Part shown: positions 986 through 32,000 of the stretch, piece after piece
Layout: each line of letters begins with the position of its first letter
Position numbering within the stretch: position 1 is the stretch's first letter
Assembly: GCF_009805595.3 (NCBI RefSeq)
Contig: NZ_VMQO03000001.1
Coordinates: 55,911-87,910 of the forward strand
Source: Candidatus Tremblayella phenacoccinincola
Lineage (GTDB): Bacteria > Pseudomonadota > Gammaproteobacteria > Burkholderiales > Burkholderiaceae
Direction: 5' to 3'
DNA: 32,000 bases
Made by a program: the position numbers and the translations under genes
Notes under the pieces: model-generated
Seen by the model: the letters and a program-made list of their open reading frames with translations, nothing else
Databases searched by the model: none
What the model was told of the DNA's origin: nothing

Positions 986-1558
986 ATAAACATAACCATA
1001 AACATAACCATAAGCATAACTTCAACTAAACGAATTAATGGTGAAGCCTCAAACCCCAAAGTAAGAATAATTGGACTAAACAAAGAACTATTAGGAACTA
1101 TGAATTTAGAAGAAGCCTTAAGCATATCCAAAAGCTTAAAAACAGATCTTATTGAGACATCACCTAACAGCTTTCCTCCAGCTTGCTGCCTAATGGATCA
1201 CGGTAAGTTCAAATATAGATCTTCAAAGAAAAAACAAAAAGATAAGGCTAAGCAAAAGACCATGCAAACAAAAGAAGTTAAACTTACTCCTAATATTGGC
1301 AAGAAGGACTACAGAATTAAAATGCGTCAGTTAGTCAGTTTCTTAGAGAAAGGAAACAAAGTTAAGGTCATTGTTAAATTCAAAGGACGAGAGATATGCT
1401 TTAAAAACATGGGCTTTGAGATTCTCAAAGAAGTCCAAACCGATCTTTCAGGCCTCTGTACAGTTGAACACTCTAAAAGAAAGGAAGACAAATGCATATC
1501 AATGTTCCTAACAACATTAAAACAAAGAAAGCCTAAACAACAAAAGTGGAATGCATAA
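986..1558 (+). CDS. infC: translation initiation factor IF-3, non-canonical (AUA/AUU) start
   Basis: Listed ORF 1100-1558 matches the IF3 linker and C-domain (DLIETSPNSFPPACCLMDHGKFKY, KFKGRE). The same frame is open upstream to TAA 962-964. It encodes the conserved N-domain (KRINGEASNPKVRIIG, compare E. coli NRINGEIRAQEVRLTG). There is no ATG/GTG/TTG before 1100. ATA at 986 follows GAGGGGG (975-981). The exact start is uncertain (986-1034). Confidence 0.82.
   Translation: MNITINITISITSTKRINGEASNPKVRIIGLNKELLGTMNLEEALSISKSLKTDLIETSPNSFPPACCLMDHGKFKYRSSKKKQKDKAKQKTMQTKEVKLTPNIGKKDYRIKMRQLVSFLEKGNKVKVIVKFKGREICFKNMGFEILKEVQTDLSGLCTVEHSKRKEDKCISMFLTTLKQRKPKQQKWNA
996..1052 (+). repeat. repeat A copy 1 (57 bp, identical to 29613-29669, direct)
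   Basis: Read by eye: ccataaacataaccataagcataacttcaactaaacgaattaatggtgaagcctcaa occurs at both sites. It overlaps the infC 5' coding end. Confidence 0.9.
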
Positions 1559-1751
1559 AACGAAACCCAAACCCAACAGAAGCGCAGCCAAACGCTTCAA
1601 GTGTAATAAAACCGGATGTATAAAGAAACGTAAGGCTTTTAGAAACCATTTGTTAACCAAGAAGCGATCTAAGAACAAAAGGAGATTACACCAGGGCTCC
1701 TATGTTCATATATCAGACTCCGAAAGGATTAGACGCATGTTGTGGCAATAA
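1551..1751 (+). CDS. rpmI: 50S ribosomal protein L35
   Basis: 66-aa basic ORF (SAAKRFK...HLLTKK..K.KRRL) placed between infC and rplT. It overlaps the infC end by 8 nt. Confidence 0.9.
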   Translation: MHKTKPKPNRSAAKRFKCNKTGCIKKRKAFRNHLLTKKRSKNKRRLHQGSYVHISDSERIRRMLWQ

Positions 1752-2122
1752 TGGAGGCTACTTTGACCAGAGTAAAAAGAGGGGTAACTTCCCGTAGTAG
1801 ACACAAGAGACTTGTTAGGTTAGCTAAAGGATTTAGGAGTAGGAGAAAGAATGTATATCGAGTTGCTAAACAGGCAGTAATGAAGTCTCAGCAATATTCA
1901 TACATTGATCGCAAAAAGAGGAAAAGAAGCTTTAGGTCTTTGTGGATTATGCATATCAATATAGCAAGCCGTAAATATGGTATAAACTACAGTACGCTAA
2001 TGAAGCAACTAAGACTCAACGGAATTGAAGTTAACAGAAAACATCTTTCAGGTCTTATCGAATACGACAGTAGCATATTTAAAGGGATAGTTGGAAGCGT
2101 TTTTAACTCAGTTAGGCTTTAG
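1751..2122 (+). CDS. rplT: 50S ribosomal protein L20
   Basis: TRVKRGVTSRSRHKRLVRLAKGF...YRVAKQAVMKSQQYSYIDRKKRKRSFRSLWI matches L20. ATG at 1751 overlaps the rpmI TAA (TAATG). The listed ORF start 1742 is a GTG extension. Confidence 0.9.
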   Translation: MEATLTRVKRGVTSRSRHKRLVRLAKGFRSRRKNVYRVAKQAVMKSQQYSYIDRKKRKRSFRSLWIMHINIASRKYGINYSTLMKQLRLNGIEVNRKHLSGLIEYDSSIFKGIVGSVFNSVRL

Positions 2123-2150
2123 AATCCTTTTAAGCGAGAGCTAGTAGTAT

Positions 2151-2567
2151 TTGTATTATATATATTGCTTAGCATTCCAAATAATACCTGGTATAACAAC
2201 AGCAATAGGTTCTACCATAGGAATACCATTAACTCATAGAAACTACTCTAATAATATAGCTTTTACAACAGGGTCTATATCCTATAAAAACAAACCTAAC
2301 TGGAATCTAGAACTAAATAAAAAGCAAACAATAATAATGTATATGTATGCAAGTAATATAACTAAGCTAAAAGAAAAGCTATTAAAAAGTAGCTTCTCAA
2401 ATAAAACTCCAATAGCAATAATTACATCAAGCACTAATAAAAACCAAAAGATAATAATAAGCAACATAAAAAGCATAGAAAGCTTATCAAATAATAATAC
2501 AACACCCTCTATATTGATAATAGGAAATATAATAAAGCTATATAGAGATATTACTACATTCAATTAA
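2151..2567 (+). pseudogene. cysG: C-terminal about 135 codons of siroheme synthase / uroporphyrinogen-III C-methyltransferase; N-terminal part absent
   Basis: IIPGITTAIGSTIGIPLTHRNYSNNIAFTTG...TIIMYM...PIAIITSST..NQKII...TPSILIIGNIIKL aligns with the last third of E. coli CysG (VVPGITAASG..GIPLTHRDYAQSV..TGH...LVFYMG...PALIIVGRVVAL). The ORF begins at a TTG directly after a stop, 30 nt past the rplT stop. The SAM-binding N-terminal half is missing. Confidence 0.65.
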
Positions 2568-2650
2568 TAAGAGCATAAGTCCCTTCTAAACCTATAACAA
2601 TCCCCCCCCCCTTCTCTAACAGCTAACACCTAAAAAGGAAAAGAGCTAGA

Positions 2651-2755
2651 ATGTCTTTATGGGACGGCCGCTTCAAAGAAAAGCTAAACATAATGTTTGA
2701 ATACTTTAACAACTCCTTAAAAACCGATTATAGGTTCATAACGAAATATAGCTAA
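2651..2755 (+). pseudogene. argH: 34-codon N-terminal stub of argininosuccinate lyase
   Basis: My translation is MSLWDGRFKEKLNIMFEYFNNSLKTDYRFITKYS*. Compare the ArgH N-terminus M.LWGGRF......F..FN.SL.FDYRL. It is too short for the ORF track and is cut off before the tRNA genes. Confidence 0.6.
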
Positions 2756-3212: not shown

Positions 3213-4631
3213 ATGCCTATGAAAATAATAACTCGCTTTGCCCCAAGTCCTACTGGATATGTTCACATTGGGGGAATAAGAACTGCCTTATATTCCTGGC
3301 TATATACTCGTAGTAAAAAAGGAAAGCTTATTTTAAGAATAGAAGATACTGACTCTTCACGTTCAAATTCCAAATACATTGACTCAATAGCTGCTGTAAT
3401 GAAATGGTTAAGTTTAGATTGGGATGAAGGTCCATACATACAAACAAAAAGACTAAACAGATATAATGAATATGTCTCTAAATTGATAAATGCTAACTTA
3501 GCTTACAAATGCTACTGTACAAAAGAAAGACTAGAAAGTCTACGTAAGTCTCAATTAGCTCAAGGAATAAAACCAAAATATGATGGCCATTGTCGTAATA
3601 AATATGTATACTATAATGACTCAAAAGAATATGTTATAAGGTTTAAAAACCCAATAAATGGAACTACCTCTTTTTATGATAATATACGCGGTTCTATTTC
3701 TTTTAGAAACGAAGAGTTAGATGATCTTATAATAAAACGAACTAATGGCCTACCTACATATAACCTATGCGTGGTAGTAGATGACTTAGACATGGAGATA
3801 ACACACATAGTTAGAGGAGAAGAACATATTAACAATACGCCCCGTCAAATAAACATACTAAAAGCCCTTAACTCACCGATTCCAATATATACGCATGTGC
3901 CAATAATATTAGGTAATTCTGGGAAAAAGCTATCTAAAAGGGAACAAGCTACAAACGTATTAGAATACAAACATAATGGGTTTTTACCAGAAGCAATAAT
4001 AAATTATATTGTTAAGCTAGGATGGACATACGGCAATAAAGAACTAATTAACATTAACGAACTAAAAGCTATATTCAATACTAAGTCCATTAGAAAGTCT
4101 GCAAGTAAGTTTGACTATGAAAAGCTACTATGGGTAAATCAACAATATATTAAAAACACTTCAGATAAGTATATTATCGAATATCTATATGTAAGCTTGA
4201 ACAAAAGCAAATACAAACCTAATATTAAATATGGTTCTATACTAAAAAGCCTAATAAGACTATATAAAACTAGATGTAATACATTAAACCTAATAACAGA
4301 AAGCTTCTACCAATTCTATATAGATTCTAGTAGTTCTAATGAAACCTATATAAACTATATAGAAGCTGCTTCTGTTTTAGATATCGTAGAAGCCATATAT
4401 AAAGAAATATCAATAACAAAAAGCTGGTCCATAAATATGATAACTGAAATAATACAAAAGATATCAATAAGCCTAAATATAGCTGTCTGTAATATAGCTA
4501 TGCTATTAAGAATAGGCTTATTAGGAAAAGCTGTATCACCAGGAATAACTCAAGTCATAAACATATTTAATAAAGAGTCTCTACTAAAACGTATAAAAAA
4601 GGTAATTACAATGCTTAAATATAACTATTGA
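3213..4631 (+). CDS. gltX: glutamyl-tRNA synthetase
   Basis: RFAPSPTGYVHIGGIRTALYSW (HIGH region), KLSKR (KMSKS-like), and a Cys cluster YKCYCTKERL...GHCRNK as in E. coli GltX. Confidence 0.92.
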   Translation: MPMKIITRFAPSPTGYVHIGGIRTALYSWLYTRSKKGKLILRIEDTDSSRSNSKYIDSIAAVMKWLSLDWDEGPYIQTKRLNRYNEYVSKLINANLAYKCYCTKERLESLRKSQLAQGIKPKYDGHCRNKYVYYNDSKEYVIRFKNPINGTTSFYDNIRGSISFRNEELDDLIIKRTNGLPTYNLCVVVDDLDMEITHIVRGEEHINNTPRQINILKALNSPIPIYTHVPIILGNSGKKLSKREQATNVLEYKHNGFLPEAIINYIVKLGWTYGNKELININELKAIFNTKSIRKSASKFDYEKLLWVNQQYIKNTSDKYIIEYLYVSLNKSKYKPNIKYGSILKSLIRLYKTRCNTLNLITESFYQFYIDSSSSNETYINYIEAASVLDIVEAIYKEISITKSWSINMITEIIQKISISLNIAVCNIAMLLRIGLLGKAVSPGITQVINIFNKESLLKRIKKVITMLKYNY

Positions 4632-4795
4632 AACAGTTGTTAGCTATTAACTTCTTTCAGACATAATAGGGGTTTCAACTAGAACTATAACATAATTACA
4701 TACTATAACAAAATAGATTAGAAACAGCTAGTCAAAAGCAGGTAACAGATAAACCCCAAACGCCAATACATATGAAAGTGTTAATATACATATGC

Positions 4796-4837
4796 TTCTC
4801 TCTTCTCTATTCTCTATTCTCTATTCTCTATTCTCTT
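4796..4837. repeat. 7-bp microsatellite (ttctcta), about 6 units with degenerate ends
   Basis: Read directly at 4796-4837 in the convergent gltX/ileS spacer. Confidence 0.85.
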
Positions 4838-4984
4838 TAGCAGATGTCAAACCAGTAACAATGTTAAATAGAGCTCGAGCTCCTACTACATGGTACCCCA
4901 ATAGAATCCTAGAAAGGTTTCGCTGGAGACGCTAGCCTATCAAGAGAGACCATTTATTCCCCTCCCCCCACAATATATTAACTA

Positions 4985-7903
4985 CTAAATAAGCATACGC
5001 ACTTCTCCAGTACCAATAATATTAGAGACACACCTATCACATATCTTAGAACCTGTAGTATAATGCCAACACCTAGAACATCTTATTCCACTAGCTTTCT
5101 TAATAGAGACTTTTAAATACTCAAAAAGGTTACTTTGTATTGCTGTTACGTCAGCTTCATTATAACTTAATATTTCTACTTCAGAAACCAACATCAAAAA
5201 AGATAACTCATTTCCTAACTTCAGTAACTTGAAAGCTAACCCATCGTCTACATACAGAACCCCACATACTTCTAAAGAACTACCAATAAACCCCCGTAAT
5301 CGCTCTAACTCAATAGCTTTGTTAACTTCACTTCGAACTTGCATCATCATATACCAATAAGCCTTATCCATATTTAAGCTAGCAAAAGATAAGGAGTTGT
5401 ACCACTCTTCAGCATACACATATTTAGCTCTTTCCCCAGACAAATAACCCCATATCTCATTAGCAGTAAAAGAAACTATAGGAGAAACCCAAAGAACCAT
5501 TGCTTCTAAAATATGATATAAAGTGGACTGACAGCTTCTTTGTGCAATACTTTTAACATTCGATGTGTAATTACGATCTTTAACAACATCTAAATAAAAA
5601 GATCCTAACTCTACTGAACAAAACTGCATAATTCGTTTAATAACAATATGAAACTGATATCTATTAAAAGCATCTATAATATCTTTTTGAAGAACATATG
5701 AACAGCTTATTATCCATTTATCCAAAGCTAACATACTTTTAAAAGAGATACTATTGTGGTTTGGATGAAACCCATTTAGATTAGCTAATAAAAACCTAAT
5801 AGTATTTCGAATACGTCGATAGATATCAGAAGAGCGTTTAATAGTTTCTTCAGAAAACTGAATCTCTTTAGTAAAATCATTTAAAGCTACCCAAATACGA
5901 AATACATCAGCTCCATAGGTTTCAATTAGATTCAATGGGTTAATAACATTTCCAATAGACTTAGACATTTTAAACCCATCAACATCTACAACAAAACCAT
6001 GCGTTAATATTTCTCGATATGGTAATTCTTCATTTATTATATTAGATAATATTAAAAGAGCCATAAACCAACCTCGATATTGATCAGAACCCTCTAAACA
6101 TAAGTCAGGCTTTTTAATATCAAACTTGATACTTAACATTCCAAGCATATAAAAGTAAGCAGTTCCAGATTCAAACCATACGTCTAATATAGAACTGCAT
6201 TTGCTATATTGTTTTATAGTTGGAAGTGGAAGTATGTTATTTCCTAAAAGCCTATCAAGATTATACCAAGCTTCAATACCATATAGATCAACTAAGTTAG
6301 CTGCTTTTTCTAATAGTTCAGAAGTACGAGGATGAACCTCATTTGTTTTAATATGCGTATATAAAGAGATAGGAACTCCCCAAATACGCTGTCTAGAAAT
6401 ACACCAATCTGGTCGGTTTATTATCATAGCTTCCATTCGTTCTTGACCCCATTTAGGAAACCAAATAATGTTTTTAATACTATGCATATTTCTTTTTACT
6501 AAGTTAATACTATTTGTCTTAATAAACCATTGAGGGGTAGTTCGATATATCACAGCCTTTTTATGACGCCAACAATAAGGATAATCATGTGTTATAGTTT
6601 CTAAATATAATAAGGAATTACTATATACTAATAAAGCAATTATATTATTATTAGCATTAGGTTTAGAACTAGGCTTAGACTTAGCATTAGGTTTAGCTTC
6701 ACATATAGATAAACCATGTAATATATAGCAGCTATCTATTAAGCAATTATCTATTAAATAACTGCCTTGCTCACTAATTAGGTTTAGAATATTAAACCTA
6801 TATCTTTTTCCTATATAATAGTCTTCTAAACCATGAGCAGACGCGATATGAACTAAACCTGTGCCAACAGTAGTTGTTACGTGTTCACTAAGAACAACTG
6901 GAACATAAAAGCTTTTGATTGGATGATAAGTTCTTATAGATTCTAAATGCTTACCTTTTACATTACTTATTAATTCCCAACTAACTATGTTCATCTTTTT
7001 CATGATACTAATTACTAAACAAGAAGCTAGTATATAATATCTATTTTCAGCTTTGATTAACTGATAGTCAATATTAGGACTAACAGCAATTGCTTGATTA
7101 GCTGGTATGCTCCAAATAGTGGTTGTCCAAACTATTAACGAAATAGACACATGGTTATGTTTAGAGTATTTAGAGTTAGGTTTTTGTTTAGGCTTATATA
7201 AACCAAATATAGAACCTATCTTTTTTGTATCTATAACCCTAAATAAAAAATAAACAGAAATATCTAAATGACTACAATATTCTATTTCAGCCTCTGCTAA
7301 GGATGACTGACAGCTAAAGCACCAATAAACTGGTTTATTATCTCTATACATATATTCTTTATTAGCTATTTTACTTAGAGTGCGAATAGCATTAGATTTT
7401 ACAGCATTATTCATAGTTAAATACGGGCTTTCCCAGTCACAGATAATACCTAAACGTATAAAGGATTCTTTTTGAATAAACACTTGTTTTGATGCGTACT
7501 TTATACAATAAACATAAAAGCTGATAGTATTATAGTTTATGTTTAGCTTATATAATATGTTTTCAAGTTTTAATTCTATAGGTAAACCATGACAGTCCCA
7601 CCCTGGTATAAATATGCAGTTATACCCCATTAACTCTTTTGATTTAATAATAAAGTCTTTCAAGGTTTTATTAACAGCGTGTCCAATATGTATTTGGCCA
7701 TTTGCGTAAGGGGGTCCATCATGTATATAATAAACCTTTTTATGTCTTTTAGAATAACGAATAGCTTTATATATATTATCATTATACCAACGGCTAATCA
7801 TTTTAGGTTCAACATCAACTAAACAAGCCCGCATCGGAAACCTAGTAGTTGGTAAGTTTAAGTTAAGAGTATTTATATAGTTGTTCATAATACTTACAAA
7901 CAT
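4985..7903 (-). CDS. ileS: isoleucyl-tRNA synthetase
   Basis: PPYANGQIHIGHAVNK (HIGH), FKMSKSIGN (KMSKS), and a C-terminal zinc knuckle CSRCWHY...CDRC. N-terminal NTLNLNLPTTRFPMRA compares with E. coli STLNLPETGFPMRG. The start could also be the second ATG at 7888. Confidence 0.95.
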   Translation of the reverse strand: MFVSIMNNYINTLNLNLPTTRFPMRACLVDVEPKMISRWYNDNIYKAIRYSKRHKKVYYIHDGPPYANGQIHIGHAVNKTLKDFIIKSKELMGYNCIFIPGWDCHGLPIELKLENILYKLNINYNTISFYVYCIKYASKQVFIQKESFIRLGIICDWESPYLTMNNAVKSNAIRTLSKIANKEYMYRDNKPVYWCFSCQSSLAEAEIEYCSHLDISVYFLFRVIDTKKIGSIFGLYKPKQKPNSKYSKHNHVSISLIVWTTTIWSIPANQAIAVSPNIDYQLIKAENRYYILASCLVISIMKKMNIVSWELISNVKGKHLESIRTYHPIKSFYVPVVLSEHVTTTVGTGLVHIASAHGLEDYYIGKRYRFNILNLISEQGSYLIDNCLIDSCYILHGLSICEAKPNAKSKPSSKPNANNNIIALLVYSNSLLYLETITHDYPYCWRHKKAVIYRTTPQWFIKTNSINLVKRNMHSIKNIIWFPKWGQERMEAMIINRPDWCISRQRIWGVPISLYTHIKTNEVHPRTSELLEKAANLVDLYGIEAWYNLDRLLGNNILPLPTIKQYSKCSSILDVWFESGTAYFYMLGMLSIKFDIKKPDLCLEGSDQYRGWFMALLILSNIINEELPYREILTHGFVVDVDGFKMSKSIGNVINPLNLIETYGADVFRIWVALNDFTKEIQFSEETIKRSSDIYRRIRNTIRFLLANLNGFHPNHNSISFKSMLALDKWIISCSYVLQKDIIDAFNRYQFHIVIKRIMQFCSVELGSFYLDVVKDRNYTSNVKSIAQRSCQSTLYHILEAMVLWVSPIVSFTANEIWGYLSGERAKYVYAEEWYNSLSFASLNMDKAYWYMMMQVRSEVNKAIELERLRGFIGSSLEVCGVLYVDDGLAFKLLKLGNELSFLMLVSEVEILSYNEADVTAIQSNLFEYLKVSIKKASGIRCSRCWHYTTGSKICDRCVSNIIGTGEVRMLI

Positions 7904-8001
7904 AATAATATATGGTTTTATTAAATAACAAATAACATAACAAGCACCCCCTATTGCAGTTTCTAAGAACTATAACATAAACTAACCCAAAAAGGAGCTC
8001 T

Positions 8002-8265
8002 ATGTTGGTAACTACTAAAACAACAAATAAAAGAATAACTAAAACAAAAAGACAACACTTAAATAATATCCGTAGAAAAGCTACACTGCGTATTTTAATA
8101 AAAAAGATTAAAGCTGCTGTTCTAATAGGAAATATAAAAGAAGCACAAGATACTTATGTTGTAACCCAGTCTATTATTGATAGACAAACCAATAAAGGCT
8201 TAGTTCATAAAAATAAAGCTGCTCGATGCAAAACAAGGTTAACTAAAAAGATTAACTTAATATAA
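8002..8265 (+). CDS. rpsT: 30S ribosomal protein S20
   Basis: ...IDRQTNKGLVHKNKAARCKTRLTKKIN matches the S20 C-terminus. AAGGAG lies upstream of the ATG. The gene is divergent from ileS. Confidence 0.9.
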   Translation: MLVTTKTTNKRITKTKRQHLNNIRRKATLRILIKKIKAAVLIGNIKEAQDTYVVTQSIIDRQTNKGLVHKNKAARCKTRLTKKINLI

Positions 8266-8268
8266 CCT

Positions 8269-9234
8269 ATGTTAACGCAGTCTATAAAAGAAATGTATAG
8301 CATATACAAAAGCAGTTCAAAAACAATAGGAAATACTCCTATAATATATCTAAATAATATAGGGGATAAAACCATATTAGCTAAAATAGAATCAAAAAAC
8401 CCTAGCTTCAGTATAAAGTGCCGAATTGGAATGAATATGCTTTTAGAACTAAAACAAAATAATATTCTTAAAAGCCCTATCAAAATAATGGAACCAACTA
8501 GCGGTAATACTGGAATTGCTTTAGCCTATATAGCTGCTGTATACAACTATGACTTAGTTCTAATAATGCCTGAAACAATGAGCATAGAGAGACAAAAGCT
8601 ATTAAAGTCATTAGGTGTTAAATTAATATTAACAGCTGGCATAAAAGGAATGAAAGGCACTATAAATAAAACTAAAAAGCTTATTAAAAAACACCCAAAA
8701 AGATATTTGATATTAGATCAGTTTAATAATCCAGCTAACTTTAAAACACATGAAACAACAACAGGCTTTGAAATATGGAAAAGCACTAAGGGAAAAATAG
8801 ATATCATTATTTCTGGAGTAGGAACTGGAGGCACAATAACCGGAATAAGTCGCTATTTTAAAAAGCTAAAAGGAAAGGCTATTTCTATTGTAGCTGTAGA
8901 ACCATTAGAATCTCCAATAATAAGTCAAACAATAACATATAAACAAGTTAAACCTAACCAACACGAAATACAAGGAATAGGTGCTGGGTTTTATCCAAAT
9001 AATCTAGACATCCATTATATAAATAAAGTAATTAAAGTATCAGGTAAACAAGCTATATTTAACACCCGTTTATTAATTAGTAAAGAAGGAATAATCTCTG
9101 GTATTTCATCAGGGGCTGTAACAGCAGCCGCAATAATAATACATGATAAACAAACCATAAAAAGAAAAGCTATTATTATATTACCATCTTCTGGAGAAAG
9201 ATATATGAGTACAAAGCTTTTTAATAACTACTAA
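8269..9234 (+). CDS. cysK: cysteine synthase A (O-acetylserine sulfhydrylase)
   Basis: GNTPIIYLN, NPSFSIKCRIG (PLP lysine), EPTSGNTGIALA and GVGTGGTITG are hallmark CysK motifs. Confidence 0.9.
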   Translation: MLTQSIKEMYSIYKSSSKTIGNTPIIYLNNIGDKTILAKIESKNPSFSIKCRIGMNMLLELKQNNILKSPIKIMEPTSGNTGIALAYIAAVYNYDLVLIMPETMSIERQKLLKSLGVKLILTAGIKGMKGTINKTKKLIKKHPKRYLILDQFNNPANFKTHETTTGFEIWKSTKGKIDIIISGVGTGGTITGISRYFKKLKGKAISIVAVEPLESPIISQTITYKQVKPNQHEIQGIGAGFYPNNLDIHYINKVIKVSGKQAIFNTRLLISKEGIISGISSGAVTAAAIIIHDKQTIKRKAIIILPSSGERYMSTKLFNNY

Positions 9235-10235
9235 TATAAAACAATAGAAACTAATAAAGACTTAATAGTATACAATCTATTTTCAGCCTGTCCAAATACT
9301 AAGCTATAAAAAGAATAAAATGCTTCATTAGTTACCTCCATTCCATATATAAAGCTATATGTATTTTGGATATGTTTGCCTATAATAGTTTTATTATCAT
9401 GAAAAGCAGGTAAGCAATGTAAGAACTTAACGTTAATGTTTTTAGTCCTTAATAAAAGCAATATATTAACTTGATAGTTACGTATATAAAATACTCTTCT
9501 TTTCCATAACCTTTTACTTTCACCCATAGAAACCCAAACATCAGTATATATGAAGTTAATGCTATTAATTCCTACTCTAGAATCTTCTGTAAGTAAAACA
9601 TTACCTCCAGCTTTTTGGGAAAGTAACTGGCACTTGCATATAAAAGACTTCAGGGGCCAAATAGTTCTCAAAGATAATAAATATATAGTTAACCCAGTTA
9701 ATAATGAAGCTTCTAATAAAGAGCTACATATATTATTACGAACATCACCTACATATACGAGTCTAACTTTACTATAGATATAATAGTTATAATATTCTTT
9801 TATAGTTAATAAGTCTGCTAATAATTGTGTTGGGTGAAAGCTATCAGTTAACCCATTTAAAACAGGAACTATAGAATGCTTAGCTAATACTTTAATAGCT
9901 TTATGTTTATGACCTCGATATTCAATAGCATCATATATACGACTAAGAAAACAAGCAGAGTCTTTTATCGATTCTTTATGTCCTATTTGATTTCCAAAAG
10001 GACCTAAATAAGTAATATTAGCACCATAATCAAAAGAAGCTACTTCAAAAGAACATCGAGTACGAGTAGAATCTTTTTCAAATATTAAAACAACCTTTTT
10101 ATCATAGAGATGCTTTTCTCTTTTTACTATGGTTTTATCTTTTTTAAAATAACAAGATAACCTTAATAAATAAGTTAACTCTAAAAAAGATAAGTCACTT
10201 AGCTTTAATAAACAGCTATCTTTTAAACTAAACAT
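9231..10235 (-). CDS. argF: ornithine carbamoyltransferase
   Basis: LIFEKDSTRTRCSFEVA, HPTQLLADL, DVWVSMGE and FLHCLPAFHD match. It is collinear with my memory of E. coli ArgI. The likely start is the ATG at 10235 (MFSLKD...). The listed ORF start 10256 is an upstream extension through the poly-G tract. Confidence 0.9.
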   Translation of the reverse strand: MFSLKDSCLLKLSDLSFLELTYLLRLSCYFKKDKTIVKREKHLYDKKVVLIFEKDSTRTRCSFEVASFDYGANITYLGPFGNQIGHKESIKDSACFLSRIYDAIEYRGHKHKAIKVLAKHSIVPVLNGLTDSFHPTQLLADLLTIKEYYNYYIYSKVRLVYVGDVRNNICSSLLEASLLTGLTIYLLSLRTIWPLKSFICKCQLLSQKAGGNVLLTEDSRVGINSINFIYTDVWVSMGESKRLWKRRVFYIRNYQVNILLLLRTKNINVKFLHCLPAFHDNKTIIGKHIQNTYSFIYGMEVTNEAFYSFYSLVFGQAENRLYTIKSLLVSIVLY

Positions 10236-10304
10236 GGTTTCCCCCCCCTCCCCCAAAAAGAATAGTTTATTTAGCAGCTAATATATATGTTGGAATAATG
10301 GTTT

Positions 10305-11637: not shown

Positions 11638-13389
<1,752 letters not shown>

Positions 13390-20931: not shown

Positions 20932-20932
20932 T

Positions 20933-23037: not shown

Positions 23038-23387
23038 TCTTTTTGCTCTTGTGAAAGGTTATCGTTTTCTATGGACTTTATAAACGCTGACTTGCAGGTT
23101 GGTTTGTATTTACGCTTCACAATAAGATACCTTAATAACATACGACAATGTTTGAGTTTAGTGGTTAGCTTAGCTAAAGAATCACAAGAGCATTCGATGT
23201 TCATACAGTAAAAATAAGCTGTGGAGTTGTTTTTAATGGCATAAGAAAGGTTTTGTTTGCCCCAACATTCATACCGATGCACCAAACCACCTACAGAAAG
23301 AACAGTTCCACTCAACTCTCTGAAAAAAGAAACCGACTCCTTATTGTTTACTGCGTCCATTAGATATACTATTTCGTAATGACTCAC
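23034..23387 (-). CDS. rpsF: 30S ribosomal protein S6
   Basis: [10 protein letters not shown]...[16 protein letters not shown] compares with E. coli MRHYEIVFMV...IHRLEDWGRRQLAYPI. Confidence 0.9.
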
Positions 23388-23596
23388 TTTGATATACGCT
23401 CTTCCAGTTGTTAATTGAGGTTTAGATATTGATGGGGGGCTTTTTAAGGGGAACCTACTATAGCATAACCGAACGTTCTGCTTTTAGCTTTGAATCATTT
23501 TGGTTTATAACAGCTTTAATTGGTTCCCCTCCCATACAAACCCAACGATGTTCCTAGCTAATATTCTTTACCAACTATTCCTAACTGAGTTCTTCA

Positions 23597-24670
23597 TTAG
23601 AAACCCAACGTTAGCTTTATAGGATCTTCTAAAGATTCTTTAACTGTTCTTAAGAAAGAAACAGCATCTTTGCCATCTATCAATCTGTGGTCGTAGGATA
23701 ATGCTAAATATATCATAGGTTTAACTTCTACTTTATCGAACAAAACAATGGGACGCTGCTCAATTGAATGAATTCCTAATATTGAAGATTGAGGTGGGTT
23801 TATTACTGGTGTTGATAACAAAGATCCAAATATGCCTCCGTTAGAAACTGTGAACGTGCCTCCACTTAGCTCTTCAATAGTAATCCTGTTGTGCATTGCT
23901 TTTGTCATAAAGTTAGAGATATTCTTTTCAATTGTATGTATGCTCATTCTTTCAGCGTTTCTTAGAGTTGGAACAATTAACCCAAGTGGGGAATTTATAG
24001 CTATACCGATATCTTGAAACTCATGATACACTATAGAATCGTCTTTGACTGAAGCATTCAGGATAGGATATTTCTTCAGTGCAATTGAGGAAGCTTTTAC
24101 GAAAAAGCTGGTTAAACCTAACTTAACGCCATGCTTTTTGGTAAACTCAACCTTGTACTTTTCTCGAAGCTTAATGACTGAACTCATATTTACTTCATTG
24201 AAAGTGGTAAGAGTTACACTTGCTTTTTGAGCTCGAAGTAACCGTTGGATTAAGCTCTTTCGTAATACAGACAAAGCTACGTATCTTTCTATTCTGTGGT
24301 TTCTTGTCTGATTGCAAAAGGAAGTATGAGTTGCTTTTGTATTTAAGCTAAGGTTGTTTGTATTTCTCAGTCTTTCGGTAGTTCGCATATAGGTGTCAGA
24401 AGAGGTTGGTTTAGCAGAAAAGCTTTTAGTTTCTATTACTGCCAGAGTTTGACCACTGTGCACTACTTCTTTTTCAGGAACCTTAATTATCTTAATCAGT
24501 CCATTAACTTCAGAAGGAACATCTAAAACAACTTTGTCTGTCTCCAACTCAAGCAGGCTATCTCCCTTCTTAACATATTGTCCTTCATGCTTTCTCCATT
24601 TTAGAACAACAGCTTCTGATACAGACTCTGCAAACTGTGGAGCTTTAACTTCAATCTCGGTAGTATCCAT
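23597..24670 (-). CDS. sucB: 2-oxoglutarate dehydrogenase E2 (dihydrolipoyl succinyltransferase)
   Basis: A single lipoyl domain ([15 protein letters not shown]) and catalytic SYDHRLIDG. Confidence 0.92.
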
Positions 24671-27212
24671 ATTTATCCCTCTTTAACCGAATGTTGAAAG
24701 CATTGCTAGTAACGAAGTGACTTTGAAACCTGAACTCAACATCAAATCCTAATGCGGTTGAAGCAGAGCTTTGAACACCACAATAAACAACTCTATTCTT
24801 AACCACGTAGCGAATATATGGTTCAATGAAATACCATATTCCCTGATTCTTAGGTTCATCTTGTACACTCAAAACCTCACAGATTGATATGTATTGTTTT
24901 GGTATACAATGCTTAGGAAATGGATACAGCTGCTCCAGCCTGATAATAGAGATCCTGTTAATACTAAACCTGTGTTGATAGGCTGCTAGTTGGAAATAGA
25001 TCTTCCCTGAACATAACAGCAGTCTCCTTAAGTGTTCATACCTTACATTGTACTTCTCCTCCACAATAGTCTTCCTAAACCTATTAGCTGTGAAGTCAGA
25101 GATGGTAGACCAAGAAGCCTTAAGTCTAAGTAAGGACTTAGGGGTTAATATTGTTAATGGTCTTTTAACTTTCCTTGACGTCTGTTCAAGAATGACATGA
25201 AATAGCTGCGCAGAAGTGGTAGGATGTACAACCGTAATATTATTGCTTGAGCATAGTTGCAAAAGCCTCTCAAGTCTTGCAGATGAGTGCTCTGAACCCT
25301 GACCTTCCTGACCATGCGGAAGATATAACACTATGTTTGAACTCTGACCCCACTTAGAACCACCAGAAGCAATAAACTGATCAAGCAGGACCTGCGCACA
25401 GTTGATAAAATCTCCGAACTGCGCTTCCCAGATCACCATCGCATAAGACTTAACCAATGAATAACCGTACTCAAAACCTAGAACTGAGCCTTCGGACAGT
25501 GGAGTATTTATAATATGTATTCTACCTTGAAGTGACGATATGTTTTGTAAAGGAGTATAAGCTGGAATACCTTGAAAACTCTGATTATAAACTACTGCAT
25601 TTCTGTGCATAAAGGTTCCTCTTGAAACATCTTGGCCTGATAACCTTATTGGAATTCCTTTGTTTAAGACTAAAGCATAAGCTAAATGTTCACTGGAATT
25701 CCAGTCTAGAGAAGCGCTTGTTTCTATTACCAGGTGTCTGTTTAAGAAGCTACGTTTTAAGAGTGGATGGAGACTAAACAATTGAGGAAGCCTAACTAAC
25801 TTACCTAGCAACCATTTAAGTTCTTCTGTTAAAGCTATACAATTGCTGTTAACTCTGATGCTTTTGAAGATATGTATTTTTCTTATGCGTGGTTGCACTG
25901 GCTTTTGGGTTTCTAAAGAGACTAGGTAATGCTTTCTTACTTTTAAAAAGGTTTCGGTTGTGGCTGGTTCCTCGTTTGATATGAACTGTAGGTAAGTCAG
26001 GTTGATGGGCTTGTGTGCTTTTATAGAACTGTACATAAGAGGTTGTGTTATTTCTGGAGTGTCTTGTTCATTGTGACCCAACCTCCTAAATGCAATGATA
26101 TCTAAGACTACGCTTTTTAGAAACTTCATTCTAAACATTAGCGCAAGCTTTGAAATAAGAACCACAGAGTCTGGGTTGTTTCCATTCACATGAAATACCG
26201 GCGCTCCTATTGTTTTGAGATGTTCGGTGCAAAAGGTAGTAGAACGAGTTTCTTTAGGTTGAGCCGTAAATCCTATTTGATTGTTAATGACTATATGAAT
26301 TGACCCATATGTTCTGTATTGTTTAATGCCTGAAAAGTTTATAGCTTCGGACACAACTCCTTGTCCTGTTATTGCCGCATCTCCATGTATCTGAATTGGA
26401 AGGACATATTCATTCTTTTTCTTAGGTGTGTTTATAGTATTTAGTTTAGCTTTTGAGATGCCTTCAACTATTGGGTTAACTGATTCTAGGTGTGAAGGGT
26501 TATAGACCATTGTTAGCTTTAAACTATTCTTATGGACCATACGGGACACACAGCCAAAGTGATATTTAACATCAAAGCTTTGAATATAGTCTTCTTTGTG
26601 TTGAAGCGAATGTACAAAGAATCTGTTTGTTGCTTCGTGATATAGGTTAATTAATATGTTAAGTCTTCCCCGATGTGCCATACCAACTACGATATCTGTA
26701 ATCTTCGACTTGGACGCAAGGCTTATTAGGGAGCTTAATAGGACAACAACAACCTCGGAGCCTTCAATAGAAAACCTCTTCTGACCTACATACGTCTTAG
26801 CAAGGAGATTCTCCAGTTCATATGCTTTCGTTAGAATAAATAAGATACTTTTCTTTACGTCTAGGTTCAAGCTTAATCTATTCAGTACGGGTCTTTCTAA
26901 AGTGCGGTGTATCCACAAGCGTTTAATGCTATTTATATGAGAAACTTCAGGATATATTCCATGGCAATAAGAGCTTCTCAGAAAACCTAAAGCTAACACA
27001 TTTGGAAACAAGTCTTTGCTGTTTAATGGTTCTAAGTTCCTAAGTGTGTTATTGAAGCCTCTGTACAGCTCTATTGTTCTGTTAGCGTTATACATTTTGG
27101 AAACGTCTGAGAAATAGATATTCCAACAGCCAGAGAGCGAATGTGGGTTATTAGTATATTTACGATACAGTAACTCAATGTATTTTATATTTTCAATGGA
27201 AGAGTCGGTCAT
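24651..27212 (-). CDS. sucA: 2-oxoglutarate dehydrogenase E1
   Basis: [46 protein letters not shown] and WEAQFGDF. Its 3' end overlaps the sucB start by 20 nt. Confidence 0.92.
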
Positions 27213-27290
27213 TAAGTTAAGCTGGGTTTATTAGATGCGTATGGTTGAAACGTGAACTTGCGATACAAGCTCGCATAGGCTTATGAGTCT

Positions 27291-27620
27291 TTAATGGGGG
27301 GGGGGAGTTGTTTTAACAAGCTCTTCGGTTGGTATAAAAGTGAGCTTTGGGGTATCTTTTAGGTTTACTCTTGCATACAGTGTTCTACATATTGTTTTGG
27401 AATAAAGAGCTAGTATTCTTGCTACGTTGCTTTTATTACCAAATAAACTAGAGAAGCTAACAATAAGTCTTTTACGGTCTTTGGATAAGATTATTCTCTG
27501 TGCAGTTATAATATTGTCCCTTAATTCTTCGGTGTGTGTTAGGATATTTAATAACTCGTACTTTAGCCTGCTAATGCTTCTTTTGTAAGAGTGAGCCCTC
27601 TTTTTATGTTCAAATGTCAT
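27291..27620 (-). CDS. rbfA: ribosome-binding factor A
   Basis: It sits immediately after infB. The RbfA-like pattern is present (R..R....L..EL..IL......D...........S.D...A.V.....TP.L.F). The C-terminus runs into a C10 tract (TTPPPH*). Confidence 0.82.
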   Translation of the reverse strand: MTFEHKKRAHSYKRSISRLKYELLNILTHTEELRDNIITAQRIILSKDRKRLIVSFSSLFGNKSNVARILALYSKTICRTLYARVNLKDTPKLTFIPTEELVKTTPPPH

Positions 27621-27631
27621 CAGAAACTAAG

Positions 27632-29149
27632 CTAAAAGAAAACCTCAAGCATGTCACCAACATATAGTTCTTGTAGGGTTTTTAGCACTACCAAAACTCC
27701 GCACTCAGAACCCCTCTTAACTTCTTCTACTGGAGTTTTAAAAAGTTTTAAAGTACGAACCTCGCATATTCCAACTTCCTTACCGTTTCTTGAAACTATG
27801 GTGCTTTTCGATCTTTTCAAAACACCAGCTTCTACTATGCAACCTAAAATTGCTTCGTTGCCTGAAACATTAAAGACTCGCTTAACTGTTGCTTTTGCTT
27901 GTGGTTTGTCCCTGCTTTCAGGCTTTGATTGAAAACCAACAGACCGTAAGTCTTCTGCTAGCTCATACACAGTTCGAAAGCTTTTAATAATAACTTTGCG
28001 TTCTTTGGATAGCTTTAGGATTCTGGAATTAGGTTTTATTCCTAATGTGATGATAACTGCTCCAGATATGGCAGCCATCCCTATGTCACTTTCGTACACT
28101 AAACCTACGCTTTTGTGGATCACTTTTGCTGGTATGTTGTTTGGTATGTTGTTAATGGTATTAACAGCAGCTTCAATCATTCCATAAGTCCTTGACTTAA
28201 CGATGTAGCGAAAGCTGTTATTGTCAGTGGTTCTTAACATATCGAACATGGTTTTTATGTTAACACACTCAGGCTCTTCAGGTTTATTATTCAATATGCA
28301 TTTGCGCTGTGTTGCAAGGTCTTTGGCAGCTTGTTCTGTTGGCACTACTATGAACTTAGCACCTGGTTTAGACGGAGTAGGTAAGCCGTAAATGTTAGCC
28401 GGTGTAGCTAGTGACACTCTTTCTATACGTTTGTTATGTTCATCGTATGCTAGTCTAACTCTACCGTAGTCACTGTTAAGTAAAACTATGTCTCCGAGGT
28501 TAAGAGAACCAGCCTGAACTAATATAGTTGTGCATATGCCCATAGTTGGAGTTACTACTGAATTAATAACTGTTCCTCTTGCTGGTATATTAACTAGTGT
28601 CTTTAGCTTATGTGAAAGCTTTGTTCTTTTGGCTTCTACATGGATTGAAGTCATCAGGTTTGGCACACCTATTCCCTTCTTGGCTGATAAATACACCAAC
28701 TTCGAGCCATCAGCGTTTAGTTTAGACTTGCTGTCAAGGCTTGAGAATATGTTTTTAACATTGGGTCTTTTGTCTATCTTATTAATTCCTAATACAACTG
28801 GTTTTCCAATAGCTTTAACGTTGGTTAATATCTTTTTGCATTCTTCAGTAACACCATCATCTATCGCAATTAGAATAACTACAATATCTGCTAGTTTTAC
28901 CCCATAGTTTCTAGTCAGTTCAAATGTTACGTGGCCTGGAGTATCAACAAATATTAGTTTTCCAATTGGAGGTGTGATGGAGCTGTATGCGAAGATATCT
29001 TGTGTTATTCCTCCAGCTTCGTAGTTAGAAGAATCAGCATTCCTTATACGTTCTATAAGTGTAGTCTTTCCATGATCTACGTGACCTACAATAGCAACAA
29101 CCAAGGCTCTTTTACCTATTCTGTTTATGCTTTCGTTTATGTTCTCCAT
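27632..29149 (-). CDS. infB: translation initiation factor IF-2, minimal form (G domain to C2 only)
   Basis: VVAIVGHVDHGKTTLIERIR, GGITQDI, VDTPGH and NKIDK. At 505 aa the long N-terminal region of enteric IF2 is absent. Confidence 0.92.
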   Translation of the reverse strand: MENINESINRIGKRALVVAIVGHVDHGKTTLIERIRNADSSNYEAGGITQDIFAYSSITPPIGKLIFVDTPGHVTFELTRNYGVKLADIVVILIAIDDGVTEECKKILTNVKAIGKPVVLGINKIDKRPNVKNIFSSLDSKSKLNADGSKLVYLSAKKGIGVPNLMTSIHVEAKRTKLSHKLKTLVNIPARGTVINSVVTPTMGICTTILVQAGSLNLGDIVLLNSDYGRVRLAYDEHNKRIERVSLATPANIYGLPTPSKPGAKFIVVPTEQAAKDLATQRKCILNNKPEEPECVNIKTMFDMLRTTDNNSFRYIVKSRTYGMIEAAVNTINNIPNNIPAKVIHKSVGLVYESDIGMAAISGAVIITLGIKPNSRILKLSKERKVIIKSFRTVYELAEDLRSVGFQSKPESRDKPQAKATVKRVFNVSGNEAILGCIVEAGVLKRSKSTIVSRNGKEVGICEVRTLKLFKTPVEEVKRGSECGVLVVLKTLQELYVGDMLEVFF

Positions 29150-29288
29150 TAGCTTGAGTAGGTTTCTTAAAATGACAGGTGTTAAGAACTATATTAGTAA
29201 ATGCTCAGCTTCTTAAGAGACAATATGCAAGCTGTTTGAGGGTTCTGCCAAGATGTGGAGAGGGTGTGTGTGAAGAGGAGGAGGAGCT

Positions 29289-29310
29289 GGAAGGTAAAGC
29301 TAGGAAGGGG
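29289..29310. repeat. inverted-repeat core, left arm (ggaaggtaaagctaggaagggg)
   Basis: 21/22 match to the reverse complement of 29812-29833. It is embedded in a C-poor GA/GT-rich tract, about 29240-29520. Confidence 0.7.
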
Positions 29311-29612
29311 TTTGAGAGGAGGAAGAGTGTTTAGGTTTGTCTCTGTGTTGATGAAGAAGAAGGTTGATGATGGTGGAAGAGAAGGAGGGTGTGAGGGAGT
29401 TGGAAATAAATGTGTGTGAAAGACTGGGAGTGTGTGAGAGAAGAGGAGAATGAGAGAGGAGAATGGTAGGAGAAGAAGATGGGTATAGAAGATGGGTATA
29501 GAAGAAGAGAGATATAATAGGAAGCTCTTTCCCCAACAGGTGGTATGTCCATGCCTATAGCTGCACGCATTAGAACCTAGAACTACCAGGTATTTCATAG
29601 TGAAGACAACAG

Positions 29613-29669
29613 CCATAAACATAACCATAAGCATAACTTCAACTAAACGAATTAATGGTGAAGCCTCAA
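29613..29669 (+). repeat. repeat A copy 2 (57 bp, a duplicate of the infC 5' coding end, no gene attached)
   Basis: 57/57 identity to 996-1052. It has 2 rather than 3 copies of the 12-bp unit. It diverges immediately after ...gaagcctcaa. Confidence 0.9.
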
Positions 29670-29811
29670 TCAAAACCTTCCCCTTCTCTCCCTCCCCCCA
29701 AAACCTATAACAAGTCCTTCCTTTCCTTTCCTTTCCTTTCTACCTCTTTACTACTCTTCCTTTTCCCCCCAGGCTTCCCCCTCAACACATCCAATACATT
29801 TTACCTTCTTT

Positions 29812-29833
29812 CCCCTTCCTACCTTTACCTTCC
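29812..29833. repeat. inverted-repeat core, right arm (ccccttcctacctttaccttcc)
   Basis: Reverse complement ggaaggtaaaggtaggaagggg, compared with 29289-29310. It is embedded in a G-poor CT-rich tract, about 29670-29850. Confidence 0.7.
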
Positions 29834-29971
29834 CCCCCAATAGCACCACCAAATACCTTCAACACAACCCTGCGTTAAAAGTATAAACTAATATCAATAA
29901 CCCTCAGCTTTTCCCACAAAGCCAACCAATGTACAACCTCTTAGTTCGTTAACTCAGCTGGTAGACCCACT

Positions 29972-31147
29972 ATGAAACCAACCTTTAAGCTTAGACTACC
30001 GGTGTATCTGGATTATAACTCTACTACGCCAGCTGATTCTAGAGTGGTGGACAAAATGCTACCATTCCTCAGACACAAGTTTGGCAACCCAGCCTCACGT
30101 TCACATATCTTAGGCTGGGAGGCTGAAGCTGCTGTAGAAAAAGCTAGAGAGTTCGTTGCTAGTTTAATCAAAGCTTCCAGTAAAGAAATTGTATGGACCT
30201 CAGGTGCAACTGAATCTAATAACTTAGCAATTAAAACCATCGCTCTTTCAAACCTTAACAAAGGAAGACATGTTATTACTCTAAAAACTGAACACAAAGC
30301 CGTCCTTGACACCTGTAGATACTTGGAATCAAAAGGCTTCATTGTTTCCTATTTAGCAGTTAACAACAATGGTTTGTTAGACCTAAACCTACTGAACAAA
30401 TGCATACAGCCTGATACCATCCTTGTAGTCATAATGTATGTTAACCATGAAATAGGGGTAATTCAGAATATAGAAAGCATAAGTAGCTTATGTTCAAGCT
30501 ATGGAATTCCGCTTCATGTTGATGCAGCGCAAGCAGTTGGTAAAGTATCAATAAATACCTCCAAGACTCAGATCAACACCATGTCTTTAACATCTCACAA
30601 AGCCTATGGACCCAAAGGAGTAGGGGCTTTGTATGTTAACAAGGCTAATGTATTTAAGATTGAACCTCAGATGCATGGTGGTGGTCAAGAGAAAGGCGTA
30701 CGTTCTGGAACTCTTCCAACACATCAAATAGTAGGAATGGGTGAAGCGTATCGGTTGATATACAACGAAGGCTTATCAGAGTTTAAGACCACAAAGCAGC
30801 TAAATGTTCATTTGGTTAAGGAATTAGTATCTATTGTTCAAGTAAACGTTAACGGAAGTTTAACATCTCGAATTCCACACAATATCAACATTAACATAAA
30901 GTATGTAGAAGGAGAAGCATTGATGATGTCGATGAAGAATGTTTGTGTTTCTTCAGGCTCTGCATGTACTTCTTCAGCTTTACAACCCTCATACATATTG
31001 CAAGCGATAGGCTGTATTCAAAACGTCCACAACTCTATTAGGTTCTCTCTAGGACGTTTCACTTTAGCTTCTGAGGTTGAATATGTGTCACAGGCTGTTA
31101 TAGAAAAGATTAAAAGATTAAGACAGCTTTCACCACTTTGGAGTTAA
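29972..31147 (+). CDS. iscS: cysteine desulfurase IscS
   Basis: LPVYLDYNSTTP, FGNPASRSH, TSGATESNNLAIK, SHKAYGPKG (PLP Lys) and SSGSACTS (active Cys). Confidence 0.93.
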   Translation: MKPTFKLRLPVYLDYNSTTPADSRVVDKMLPFLRHKFGNPASRSHILGWEAEAAVEKAREFVASLIKASSKEIVWTSGATESNNLAIKTIALSNLNKGRHVITLKTEHKAVLDTCRYLESKGFIVSYLAVNNNGLLDLNLLNKCIQPDTILVVIMYVNHEIGVIQNIESISSLCSSYGIPLHVDAAQAVGKVSINTSKTQINTMSLTSHKAYGPKGVGALYVNKANVFKIEPQMHGGGQEKGVRSGTLPTHQIVGMGEAYRLIYNEGLSEFKTTKQLNVHLVKELVSIVQVNVNGSLTSRIPHNININIKYVEGEALMMSMKNVCVSSGSACTSSALQPSYILQAIGCIQNVHNSIRFSLGRFTLASEVEYVSQAVIEKIKRLRQLSPLWS

Positions 31148-31148
31148 A

Positions 31149-31547
31149 ATGCTGTATAGTAAAAAGGTTTTACGTTATTATCACAGCAACAAAAATGTAG
31201 GCTCTTTCCCAGAAGGTGAAAACAACATTGGCACTGGGGTGGTTGGTTCGCCTTCATGTGGAGATGTTTTGAAGTTACAGCTAAAGATTGAGAATGGAGT
31301 TATTGTTGGTGCAAAATATAAAACTTACGGCTGTGGTTCAGCTATTGCTTCAAGTGCCTTGGTCGCTGAGTTAGTACAAGGAAAAACCCTAGAGCAAGCA
31401 ATGGCCATCAAGAATATAGAGATAATTAATGAATTGGGTCTACCCCCAATTAAAACACATTGTTCGGTTTTGGCAGAGAATGCAATTAAGACAGCCATTA
31501 CAAACTTCTATACAACAAACCCTAAAGATAAACCTAAAGCTAATTAA
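31149..31547 (+). CDS. iscU: Fe-S cluster scaffold IscU
   Basis: GSPSCGDVLKLQ, YKTYGCGSAIASS and PPIKTHCSVLAE. Confidence 0.93.
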   Translation: MLYSKKVLRYYHSNKNVGSFPEGENNIGTGVVGSPSCGDVLKLQLKIENGVIVGAKYKTYGCGSAIASSALVAELVQGKTLEQAMAIKNIEIINELGLPPIKTHCSVLAENAIKTAITNFYTTNPKDKPKAN

Positions 31548-31553
31548 GAAATA

Positions 31554-31877
31554 ATGTCACTACATTTTACAATGGAAGTAAGCCAATATGTTCGTTGTTT
31601 TATTAAGCCCTGGCAATACATAAGGATTAGGGTTTTTAAAGCTGGTTGTAATGGATTGTCTTATGAATTCAAAGCTGAGTCCAGAACCAGAAGGGAAGAC
31701 CTAGTATTTTGTATAGATGGTGTTAGGATTCTGTTAAACCAAGACAGCCTCCCATGTTTCAAAGCTCTTAAGGTAACTGTTAGAAACGTTAGTCTTGGAA
31801 TACGGATAGTGTTTGTGAATCCAAAAGCTACTTCAATATGTGGTTGTGGTAAGTCTTTAAGTATTAGTAGAAGCTAG
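31554..31877 (+). CDS. iscA: A-type Fe-S carrier (IscA/HesB family)
   Basis: AGCNGLSYEF and the C-terminal CGCGKS motif, positioned after iscU. Confidence 0.85.
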   Translation: MSLHFTMEVSQYVRCFIKPWQYIRIRVFKAGCNGLSYEFKAESRTRREDLVFCIDGVRILLNQDSLPCFKALKVTVRNVSLGIRIVFVNPKATSICGCGKSLSISRS

Positions 31878-31938
31878 CTGTTAAAGGTTAGTTGAGTAGT
31901 TTATTAGGGTTTTATTATTATTATTTGGATGATATGTG

Positions 31939-32000
31939 TGTATACGAGAGGGGAGAGAGAAGCTCTTTAATAGCTATAGCTGTTAACTCTCTCCTCTCCT
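31939..32000 (+). repeat. repeat B copy 2 (runs into window edge)
   Basis: 62/62 identity to 19436-19497, starting 61 nt after the iscA stop. Confidence 0.9.

Follow-up and report, generated by a model that had tools for sequence, protein, structure and literature searches.

Are the two pairs of short direct repeats that interleave on one stretch of the genome of Candidatus Tremblayella phenacoccinincola (Candidatus Tremblaya phenacola) active sites of recombination, or do they mark places at which this genome was rearranged in the past? The stretch (hereafter the window) comprises 32,000 nt, positions 55,911 to 87,910 of the forward strand of contig NZ_VMQO03000001.1 (assembly GCF_009805595.3), and all coordinates below are counted from its first nucleotide. 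Its repeats are denoted A (copies A1 and A2) and B (copies B1 and B2). An earlier note on this DNA had described both pairs and proposed that such an arrangement can generate isomeric or multipartite chromosome forms. Gene order is frozen in most ancient insect symbionts, and the chimeric T. phenacola clade, which stems from the fusion of two bacterial genomes, is among the few exceptions. Two strains of this clade are compared here. Since the window is 84–87% identical to strain PPER and its base composition matches the GC content of 34.8% reported for strain PSOL, it most likely represents PSOL, from the cotton mealybug Phenacoccus solenopsis. We conclude, with a probability of about 60%, that past rearrangements left A2 and B as footprints, which possibly also act as weak substrates for rare exchange.

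Two interleaved pairs of direct repeats

A direct-repeat scan of the whole window located four copies:

996–1052, forward strand: repeat A1, the native translation-start region of infC
19432–19497, forward strand: repeat B1, a junction sequence that forms a hairpin and lies between thrB and thrC, which are convergent
29613–29669, forward strand: repeat A2, an infC stub of 57 nt in the infB–iscS spacer and a secondary copy of A1
31935–32000, forward strand: repeat B2, downstream of iscA and cut by the end of the window

A1 and A2 are identical over their full length (57 of 57 nt, 100%) and are spaced 28,617 nt apart, whereas B1 and B2 agree at 65 of 66 positions (98%) and lie 12,503 nt apart. 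The minimum length of B is 66 nt, of which an exact core of 62 nt starts at 19436 and 31939. Because homology to PPER brackets B1 within 19413–19503, B can extend over at most ∼72 nt, counted from its left edge. Each pair is direct; along the window, the copies succeed one another as A1, B1, A2 and B2, all with one orientation. The scan thus agrees with the earlier note, which had listed two interleaved pairs in the same orientation and had placed B at the starts of the exact core.

The window was compared with 30 dinucleotide-preserving shuffles of itself. In the shuffles, the longest exact repeat had a mean length of 15.5 nt and a maximum of 19 nt; the 62 nt found in the real sequence therefore exclude chance as the source of the repeats. 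Besides A and B, the 32 kb contain exact repeats of at least 20 nt only as tandem arrays and as a 22-nt pair inside yebC. Shuffle-controlled local alignments found the flanks of the two A copies to be mutually unrelated, and likewise those of the two B copies, so that both repeats have sharp edges. A MAFFT alignment had hinted that the sequence upstream of A2 is a diverged form of that upstream of A1, as would be expected of a longer and older duplication; this candidate was rejected, as the shuffle-controlled alignments revealed no similarity. Near-identical direct repeats that lie kilobases apart on one molecule are a feature of repeat-mediated multipartite genomes and are present here. The interleaving alone carries little weight, since two randomly placed pairs would interleave one-third of the time.

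A2 appears to be a young copy of the infC start region

Repeat A is composed of a 38-nt leader, an ATT start codon (1034–1036 in A1) and the first six codons of infC. The features that overlap A1 are:

1034–1558, forward strand: infC (encoding IF3), with its 5′ end inside A1
985–1020, forward strand: CATAAC/CATAAACATAAC microsatellite, the left part of A1, with one 12-nt unit more than the A2 copy

Read in the infC frame, A1 yields KRINGEAS..., the N-terminus of IF3, where the open reading frame (ORF) finder had taken only the internal ATG at 1100. The start of the PPER InfC record (196 aa, WP_236859553.1), at position 8837 of PPER contig 8 (L084), corresponds to the ATT at 1034 of the window. 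A begins with 25 nt of hexamer microsatellite of the CATAAC type.

The gene order aroC–infC–rpmI–rplT–cysG stub is common to the window and PPER contig 8, and the A-like sequence at PPER infC is 87.7% identical to A1, which amounts to ordinary orthologous divergence. The aroC–infC adjacency, together with an A-like sequence, also occurs in a third lineage (Logan assembly). A1 is therefore the native copy, both its adjacency and its sequence having been kept in PPER and in the third strain.

The situation at A2 is different. The homologous infB–iscS spacer on PPER contig 15 contains no copy of A and measures 310 bp, as against 823 bp in the window. At the divergence between PSOL and PPER (84–87% identity), the chance that 57 bases remain unchanged is roughly 1e-4, and the perfect identity of A1 and A2 thus means that A2 is either much younger than the strain split or has been homogenised. 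We take A2 to be a young, PSOL-lineage-specific copy derived from A1. It opens a frame of 19 codons only, 300 nt upstream of iscS. Repeat A had no exact match in a genome collection of species representatives.

A simple repeat related to A also occurs in the PPER infB–iscS spacer. There, a (TTATGC/TTATGT)n array (L081, 9743–9778), the reverse complement of the CATAAC microsatellite, matches window positions 983–1018 over 36 nt at 94%. The same simple repeat thus links the aroC–infC and infB–iscS spacers in both strains, in the opposite orientation in PPER; its presence in both spacers may be convergence.

A2 sits in the spacer of the divergent genes infB and iscS, at the switch point between two arms of opposite strand composition:

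29249–29526 (278 nt), left of A2: G-rich, almost C-free arm with a GC skew of +0.76 to +1.0, absent in PPER
29659–29873 (215 nt), right of A2: C-rich, almost G-free arm with a GC skew of −0.8 to −1.0

The remark of the earlier note that the repeats lie beside gene stubs or low-complexity arms is borne out by the infC 5′ stub in A and by these arms on either side of A2. Both arms are absent from the homologous spacer of PPER. The sole link between them is a 22-nt inverted repeat of 95% identity (29289–29310/29812–29833). This repeat aside, the fold energy of the A2 spacer equals that of shuffles (z = 0.02), and a giant hairpin or cruciform was rejected as an interpretation. A replication origin was also rejected, because DnaA boxes are at chance level and none lies within the spacer. 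Near the left end of PPER contig 8 (L084, 343–633), a tmRNA gene called by ARAGORN lies beside G-rich and C-rich low-complexity patches that resemble those at A2.

Repeat B1 lies on a synteny break

The two copies of B enclose a block of genes that is matched by one complete contig of PPER:

19498–31934: B-bounded block with thrC, hom, rplI, rpsR, rpsF, sucB, sucA, rbfA, infB, A2, iscS, iscU and iscA, matching the whole PPER contig MKGN01000015.1

This contig (PPER contig 15, 12,272 bp) consists entirely of the thrC–iscA block, at 84–87% nucleotide identity. It is collinear with the window from 19504, 7 nt past the visible end of B1, to 31894, 41 nt before B2. To the left of B1, collinearity is with PPER contig 12 (14,706 bp); it begins at the 3′ end of gltX and reaches the spacer that follows thrB, where homology ends at 19412, 20 nt before B1. 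Past thrB, the PPER contig continues into tRNA-Met and tRNA-Leu instead of thrC. The C-terminus of ThrC reads ...LLGC* in PPER versus ...LLGEGRRGES* in the window, where the extra codons and the stop are contributed by the right arm of B1; the native stop codon of thrC has been replaced by B. B1 is a junction sequence that lies precisely on a PSOL/PPER synteny break, and this break was trimmed to the last thrC codon. The 12.5-kb block bounded by B acts as a unit in both PSOL and PPER.

Outside the PSOL-like strain described below, B was not found in the PPER contigs examined (∼37 kb) or in the contigs of other strains, and a search of metagenome contigs returned no match. PPER contig 15 shows no terminal overlap that would indicate circularity (12,207 of its 12,272 nt were compared). 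A PSOL-like strain (Logan SRR13503347), 97.7–98.7% identical to the window, has B after iscA and the right end of B beside thrC. One of its contigs (L085) ends 45 nt into B2.

The positions of the repeats can be compared with the breakpoints between strains. B1 lies on a break and B2 is compatible with one, whereas the adjacencies at A1 (aroC–infC) and A2 (infB–iscS) are conserved. The position of B1 on the PSOL/PPER break and the match of the B1–B2 interval to a whole PPER contig fit the suggestion of the earlier note that the repeats may be fossil breakpoints; A2 is not a synteny breakpoint, infB and iscS being adjacent in PPER too.

B forms a hairpin of the type GAGAGGGGAGAGAG ... CTCTCTCCTCTC with an inner AGCTATAGCT palindrome. 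The fold energy of its DNA is −12.6 kcal/mol (z = −3.3), and none of 200 shuffles was as stable. An intrinsic terminator was considered and rejected: the hairpin has no T-run and no terminator-like site was called at B1.

Origin of the repeats

The interpretation of A2 and B as footprints of past rearrangements starts from what is observed: the repeats themselves, their ages relative to the PSOL/PPER split, the position of B1 on a synteny break and the match of the block to a contig. Both A2 and B may have been generated by break repair with templated filler, or may be the leftover ends of segmental duplications. For A2, one or the other of these routes is probable. The first would have copied filler DNA in during the repair of a break. 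By the second route, A2 would be the first 57 nt left over from a second tandem copy of the 28.6-kb segment, the remainder of which was deleted. Repeats of such origin could still provide weak homology for rare exchange, and we would expect any circles or isomers that result to occur at low stoichiometry, if at all.

Several observations weigh against this view. The near-perfect identity of both pairs is also expected from ongoing gene conversion and, to that extent, favours exchange that is still active. The ends of PPER contigs can reflect the limits of an assembly instead of biology, and those at the block end without B. B2 is truncated at the end of the window. Finally, in the independent short-read (Logan) assembly of the PSOL-like strain, contigs end within or close to B1 and B2 and skip the A2 spacer (breaks at 19342, 19488, 29085/29910 and 31979); none of them spans A2, B1 or B2, and they neither confirm nor contradict the junctions.

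Alternative explanations

The strongest competitor is active isomerisation, in which appreciable exchange between A1 and A2 and between B1 and B2 in a polyploid symbiont would maintain a master form, circles of 28.6 and 12.5 kb and a re-fused isomer. We regard this as unlikely, albeit clearly ahead of the other alternatives. Its geometry follows from the coordinates. Exchange at A would yield a circle of 28,617 bp that runs from infC to infB and carries B1, and exchange at B a circle of 12,503 bp from thrC to iscA; successive exchanges at A and then at B would swap the 18.4-kb A1–B1 and the 2.3-kb A2–B2 segments. The earlier note had derived the same topology, an A circle with B1 that re-fuses through B1 and B2 in a new order, and its derivation is correct. 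All genes would stay intact in any recombinant, because A covers the start of infC and B the stop of thrC.

Such exchange would be in line with the repeats themselves: both pairs are direct, interleaved and 98–100% identical, and an identity above background fits concerted evolution. The coincidence of B1 with a synteny break and the existence of the B-bounded block as a contig of its own in PPER point in the same direction. The earlier note had also mentioned repeat-mediated alternative structures in connection with the chimeric Tremblaya genome. The window does belong to T. phenacola, and for PPER different genome organisations are reported to coexist, favoured by many repeated sequences (PMC6463088, in which the authors of Gil et al., 2018, ISME J 12:124, give an account of that study). 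The PSOL genome, for which earlier PacBio-derived scaffolds exist, could not be closed in a seven-contig hybrid assembly, in part owing to repeats at contig flanks (PMC11014885). In addition, Portiera aleyrodidarum BT demonstrates that exchange of this type is possible where the complement of recombination genes is minimal (PMC3673631).

The case against active isomerisation begins with the size of the repeats, which measure only 57 nt and ∼66–72 nt, and 25 nt of A are microsatellite. A single contig passes through all four copies in one order; if this contig is PacBio-derived, long reads would have spanned all four copies in that order. The strains show no break at A2. The 32-kb window, which covers part of a genome of ∼221 kb, contains no recombination gene, and ligA is its only repair gene. 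Moreover, the apparent circle of Portiera is equally consistent with tandem copy-number variation (PMC3673631).

A bolder version of this idea is conceivable, and we hold it to be less probable still. In it, the thrC–iscA block would excise and re-integrate via B, PSOL would be truly multipartite and PPER contig 12 would represent the B-excised form. The copies of A and of B would be kept identical by ongoing gene conversion in a genome with almost no recombination genes, and the G-only and C-only arms around A2 would constitute a structure-prone hot spot for breaks that captures templated filler DNA.

It is improbable that the repeats are selected cis-elements, with B as a regulatory or terminator hairpin after thrC/thrB and iscA and A2 as a re-used infC initiation cassette. 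The stability of the B hairpin (z = −3.3) would suit such a role, but no site with a hairpin followed by a T-run exists at B1, and B is absent at the same positions of PPER. Similarly, A does carry a leader and an ATT start of the IF3 type, yet the frame opened by A2 ends after 19 codons and lies 300 nt from iscS. An Rfam scan of the window returned three tRNAs only and hence no match to either repeat.

An assembly artefact, that is, a copy of A or B or the thrB–B1–thrC join created by threading through a collapsed repeat or by mis-polishing, is very improbable. The thrB/thrC junction differs from PPER, and none of the independent Logan contigs, which break near the repeats, reaches across A2, B1 or B2. 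Every copy, however, has unique flanks on both sides within one contig, and the Logan strain independently has B after iscA and the right end of B beside thrC. Repeats of 57–66 nt are trivial for long reads, and the earlier PSOL scaffolds were PacBio-derived (PMC11014885).

That A and B are copies of a small mobile element, such as a miniature inverted-repeat transposable element or a repetitive extragenic palindrome, or attachment sites of a site-specific recombinase, is scarcely credible: inverted-repeat arms and an internal AGCTATAGCT palindrome are present in B, but the 32 kb contain just two copies, ∼37 kb of PPER and the contigs of other strains contain none, no target-site duplication was seen, no ORF of the window encodes a transposase or integrase, and genome and metagenome collections gave no exact matches.

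Relation to known multipartite genomes

Repeat-associated alternative organisation has already been reported for PPER, the sister strain, and the mechanism is known in Portiera and in plant mitochondria. PPER belongs to the same chimeric clade; its genes are 84–87% identical to those of the window and collinear in blocks, and two of its contig ends fall at the sites of B1 and B2. It differs in that the contigs examined have no A2 copy, no B sequence and no G-only or C-only arms, and in that tRNA-Met and tRNA-Leu follow thrB where the window has B1 and thrC.

In Portiera aleyrodidarum BT, a whitefly symbiont, direct repeats of 349 bp and 172 bp support alternative structures according to PCR, Southern blots and conflicting read pairs, although the authors caution that tandem copy-number variation may instead account for the apparent subcircle (Sloan and Moran, 2013, PMC3673631). 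Portiera resembles the present case in several respects: it is an obligate symbiont of an insect, its inflated spacers are rich in microsatellites, its direct repeats are identical, it has many lineage-specific rearrangements, and the logic of a master circle and subcircles was proposed for it. Inflated intergenic regions rich in tandem repeats are found in the window as well, namely the 823-bp infB–iscS spacer and several arrays. The structures of Portiera were demonstrated by experiment, whereas the repeats described here are 3–6 times shorter and are known from sequence alone.

Large mitochondrial repeats with high-frequency recombination are typically kilobases long. In plant mitochondria, direct repeats interconvert large and smaller circles, and interleaved pairs re-fuse in a new order (Palmer and Shields, 1984, as cited in PMC3673631). 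A further likeness to the window is that breakpoints carry gene stubs and short repeats; a difference is that the recombination machinery of the organelle is encoded in the nucleus.

The authors of the PPER study raised the analogy of Hodgkinia in cicadas, with its subgenomic circles and lineage splitting (PMC6463088). Hodgkinia likewise has a tiny symbiont genome that is split into several molecules within one host. Its circles, however, reside in distinct cell lineages with complementary gene loss and do not interconvert through repeats, and nothing in the window is suggestive of lineage splitting of this type.

Measured against a literature basis that lacked the primary PPER paper, new elements are the assignment of a hairpin repeat to a breakpoint between PSOL and PPER and to both ends of a block the size of a contig, the recognition that A2 is a recent copy of the region in which infC translation starts, and the strand-asymmetric arms around A2. 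Pinning the breakpoints to specific short repeats provides concrete, PCR-sized targets. These targets bear on whether reshuffling is ongoing, on how a symbiont manages it with few repair genes and on a drift toward an organelle-like, multipartite architecture. If the repeats are inert, they are merely scars of a known instability.

Genomic setting of the window

The window is dense in housekeeping and amino-acid biosynthesis genes and has a GC content of 27–42%. Its IscS is identical (100%, full length) to an NCBI protein of ‘Candidatus Tremblaya phenacola’, the next match being the PPER orthologue at 87%. Nine further proteins are exact NCBI entries of T. phenacola, all from the 87,910-bp contig that also encodes this IscS and within the range KAH0998330 to KAH0998367. 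Outside Tremblaya, the nearest relatives of IscS are Betaproteobacteria (55–60%), and those of ArgF are Enterobacterales and Sodalis (51–55%). A locus search with IscS in the collection of species representatives yielded free-living Betaproteobacteria alone. The two gene types differ in their surroundings: positions 4000–11000, which hold the gamma-type ArgF, have a GC content of 27–30%, as against 36–42% at 13000–32000, where the beta-type IscS lies. Beta- and gamma-type genes on one contig are the chimeric beta/gamma architecture of T. phenacola, which has been published for both PPER and PSOL (PMC5664097; PMC11014885).

All four repeat copies lie in parts of higher GC content (33–42% in a 1-kb profile). 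This location, together with the beta-type IscS, the only neighbouring gene checked for its origin, indicates that the repeats are probably not at seams between beta- and gamma-derived DNA. Every ORF of at least 100 aa in the window is housekeeping, biosynthetic or a low-complexity artefact.

Rearrangement and gene decay elsewhere in the clade

A further synteny break is found at 2706–2722, where PPER contig 8 ends; no repeat of the window is associated with this break. Past this point, the third lineage (Logan SRR17390676) continues into argH and not into tRNA-Trp/tRNA-Asp and gltX. Tandem arrays occur in the window at 985, 4796, 18036, 19238, 29474 and 29718. The T. phenacola clade rearranges, with strain breakpoints in expanded, microsatellite-rich spacers.

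Three of the arrays are perfect spacer minisatellites: 18036–18100 (13 nt × 5), 19238–19281 (9 nt × 4.9) and 4796–4836 (7 nt × 5.9). In the Logan PSOL-like strain (L086), the array of 9-nt units that follows thrB is shorter. Spacers of PPER contig 15 hold fragments of 25–28 nt that match ileS (96% identity, E = 8e-5 and 2e-6; L082 12380–12404/L081 2935–2959 and L082 13876–13903/L081 12003–12030), and short gene-fragment repeats in spacers are thus present in the sister strain as well.

Partial genes are also conserved between the strains. A stub that corresponds to the C-terminus of CysG/uroporphyrinogen methyltransferase (profile positions 324–449 of 450) is kept in three T. phenacola lineages, which is odd for a dead fragment:

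2151–2567 of the window: cysG stub
9896–10297 of PPER contig 8 (L084): cysG stub
6233–6463 of the third-lineage contig (L087): cysG stub

A fragment of aconitase (acnA) of ∼335 aa, covering profile positions ∼190–366 of 893, is present in PSOL (14872–15888) and in PPER (L082, 3736–4743). By comparison, yebC is intact in the window (240 aa, 10305–11027) and in the Logan PSOL-like strain, whereas PPER has only ORFs of 56 and 43 aa at the corresponding locus (L082, 8499–8963), a difference that suggests lineage-specific decay of this gene in PPER.

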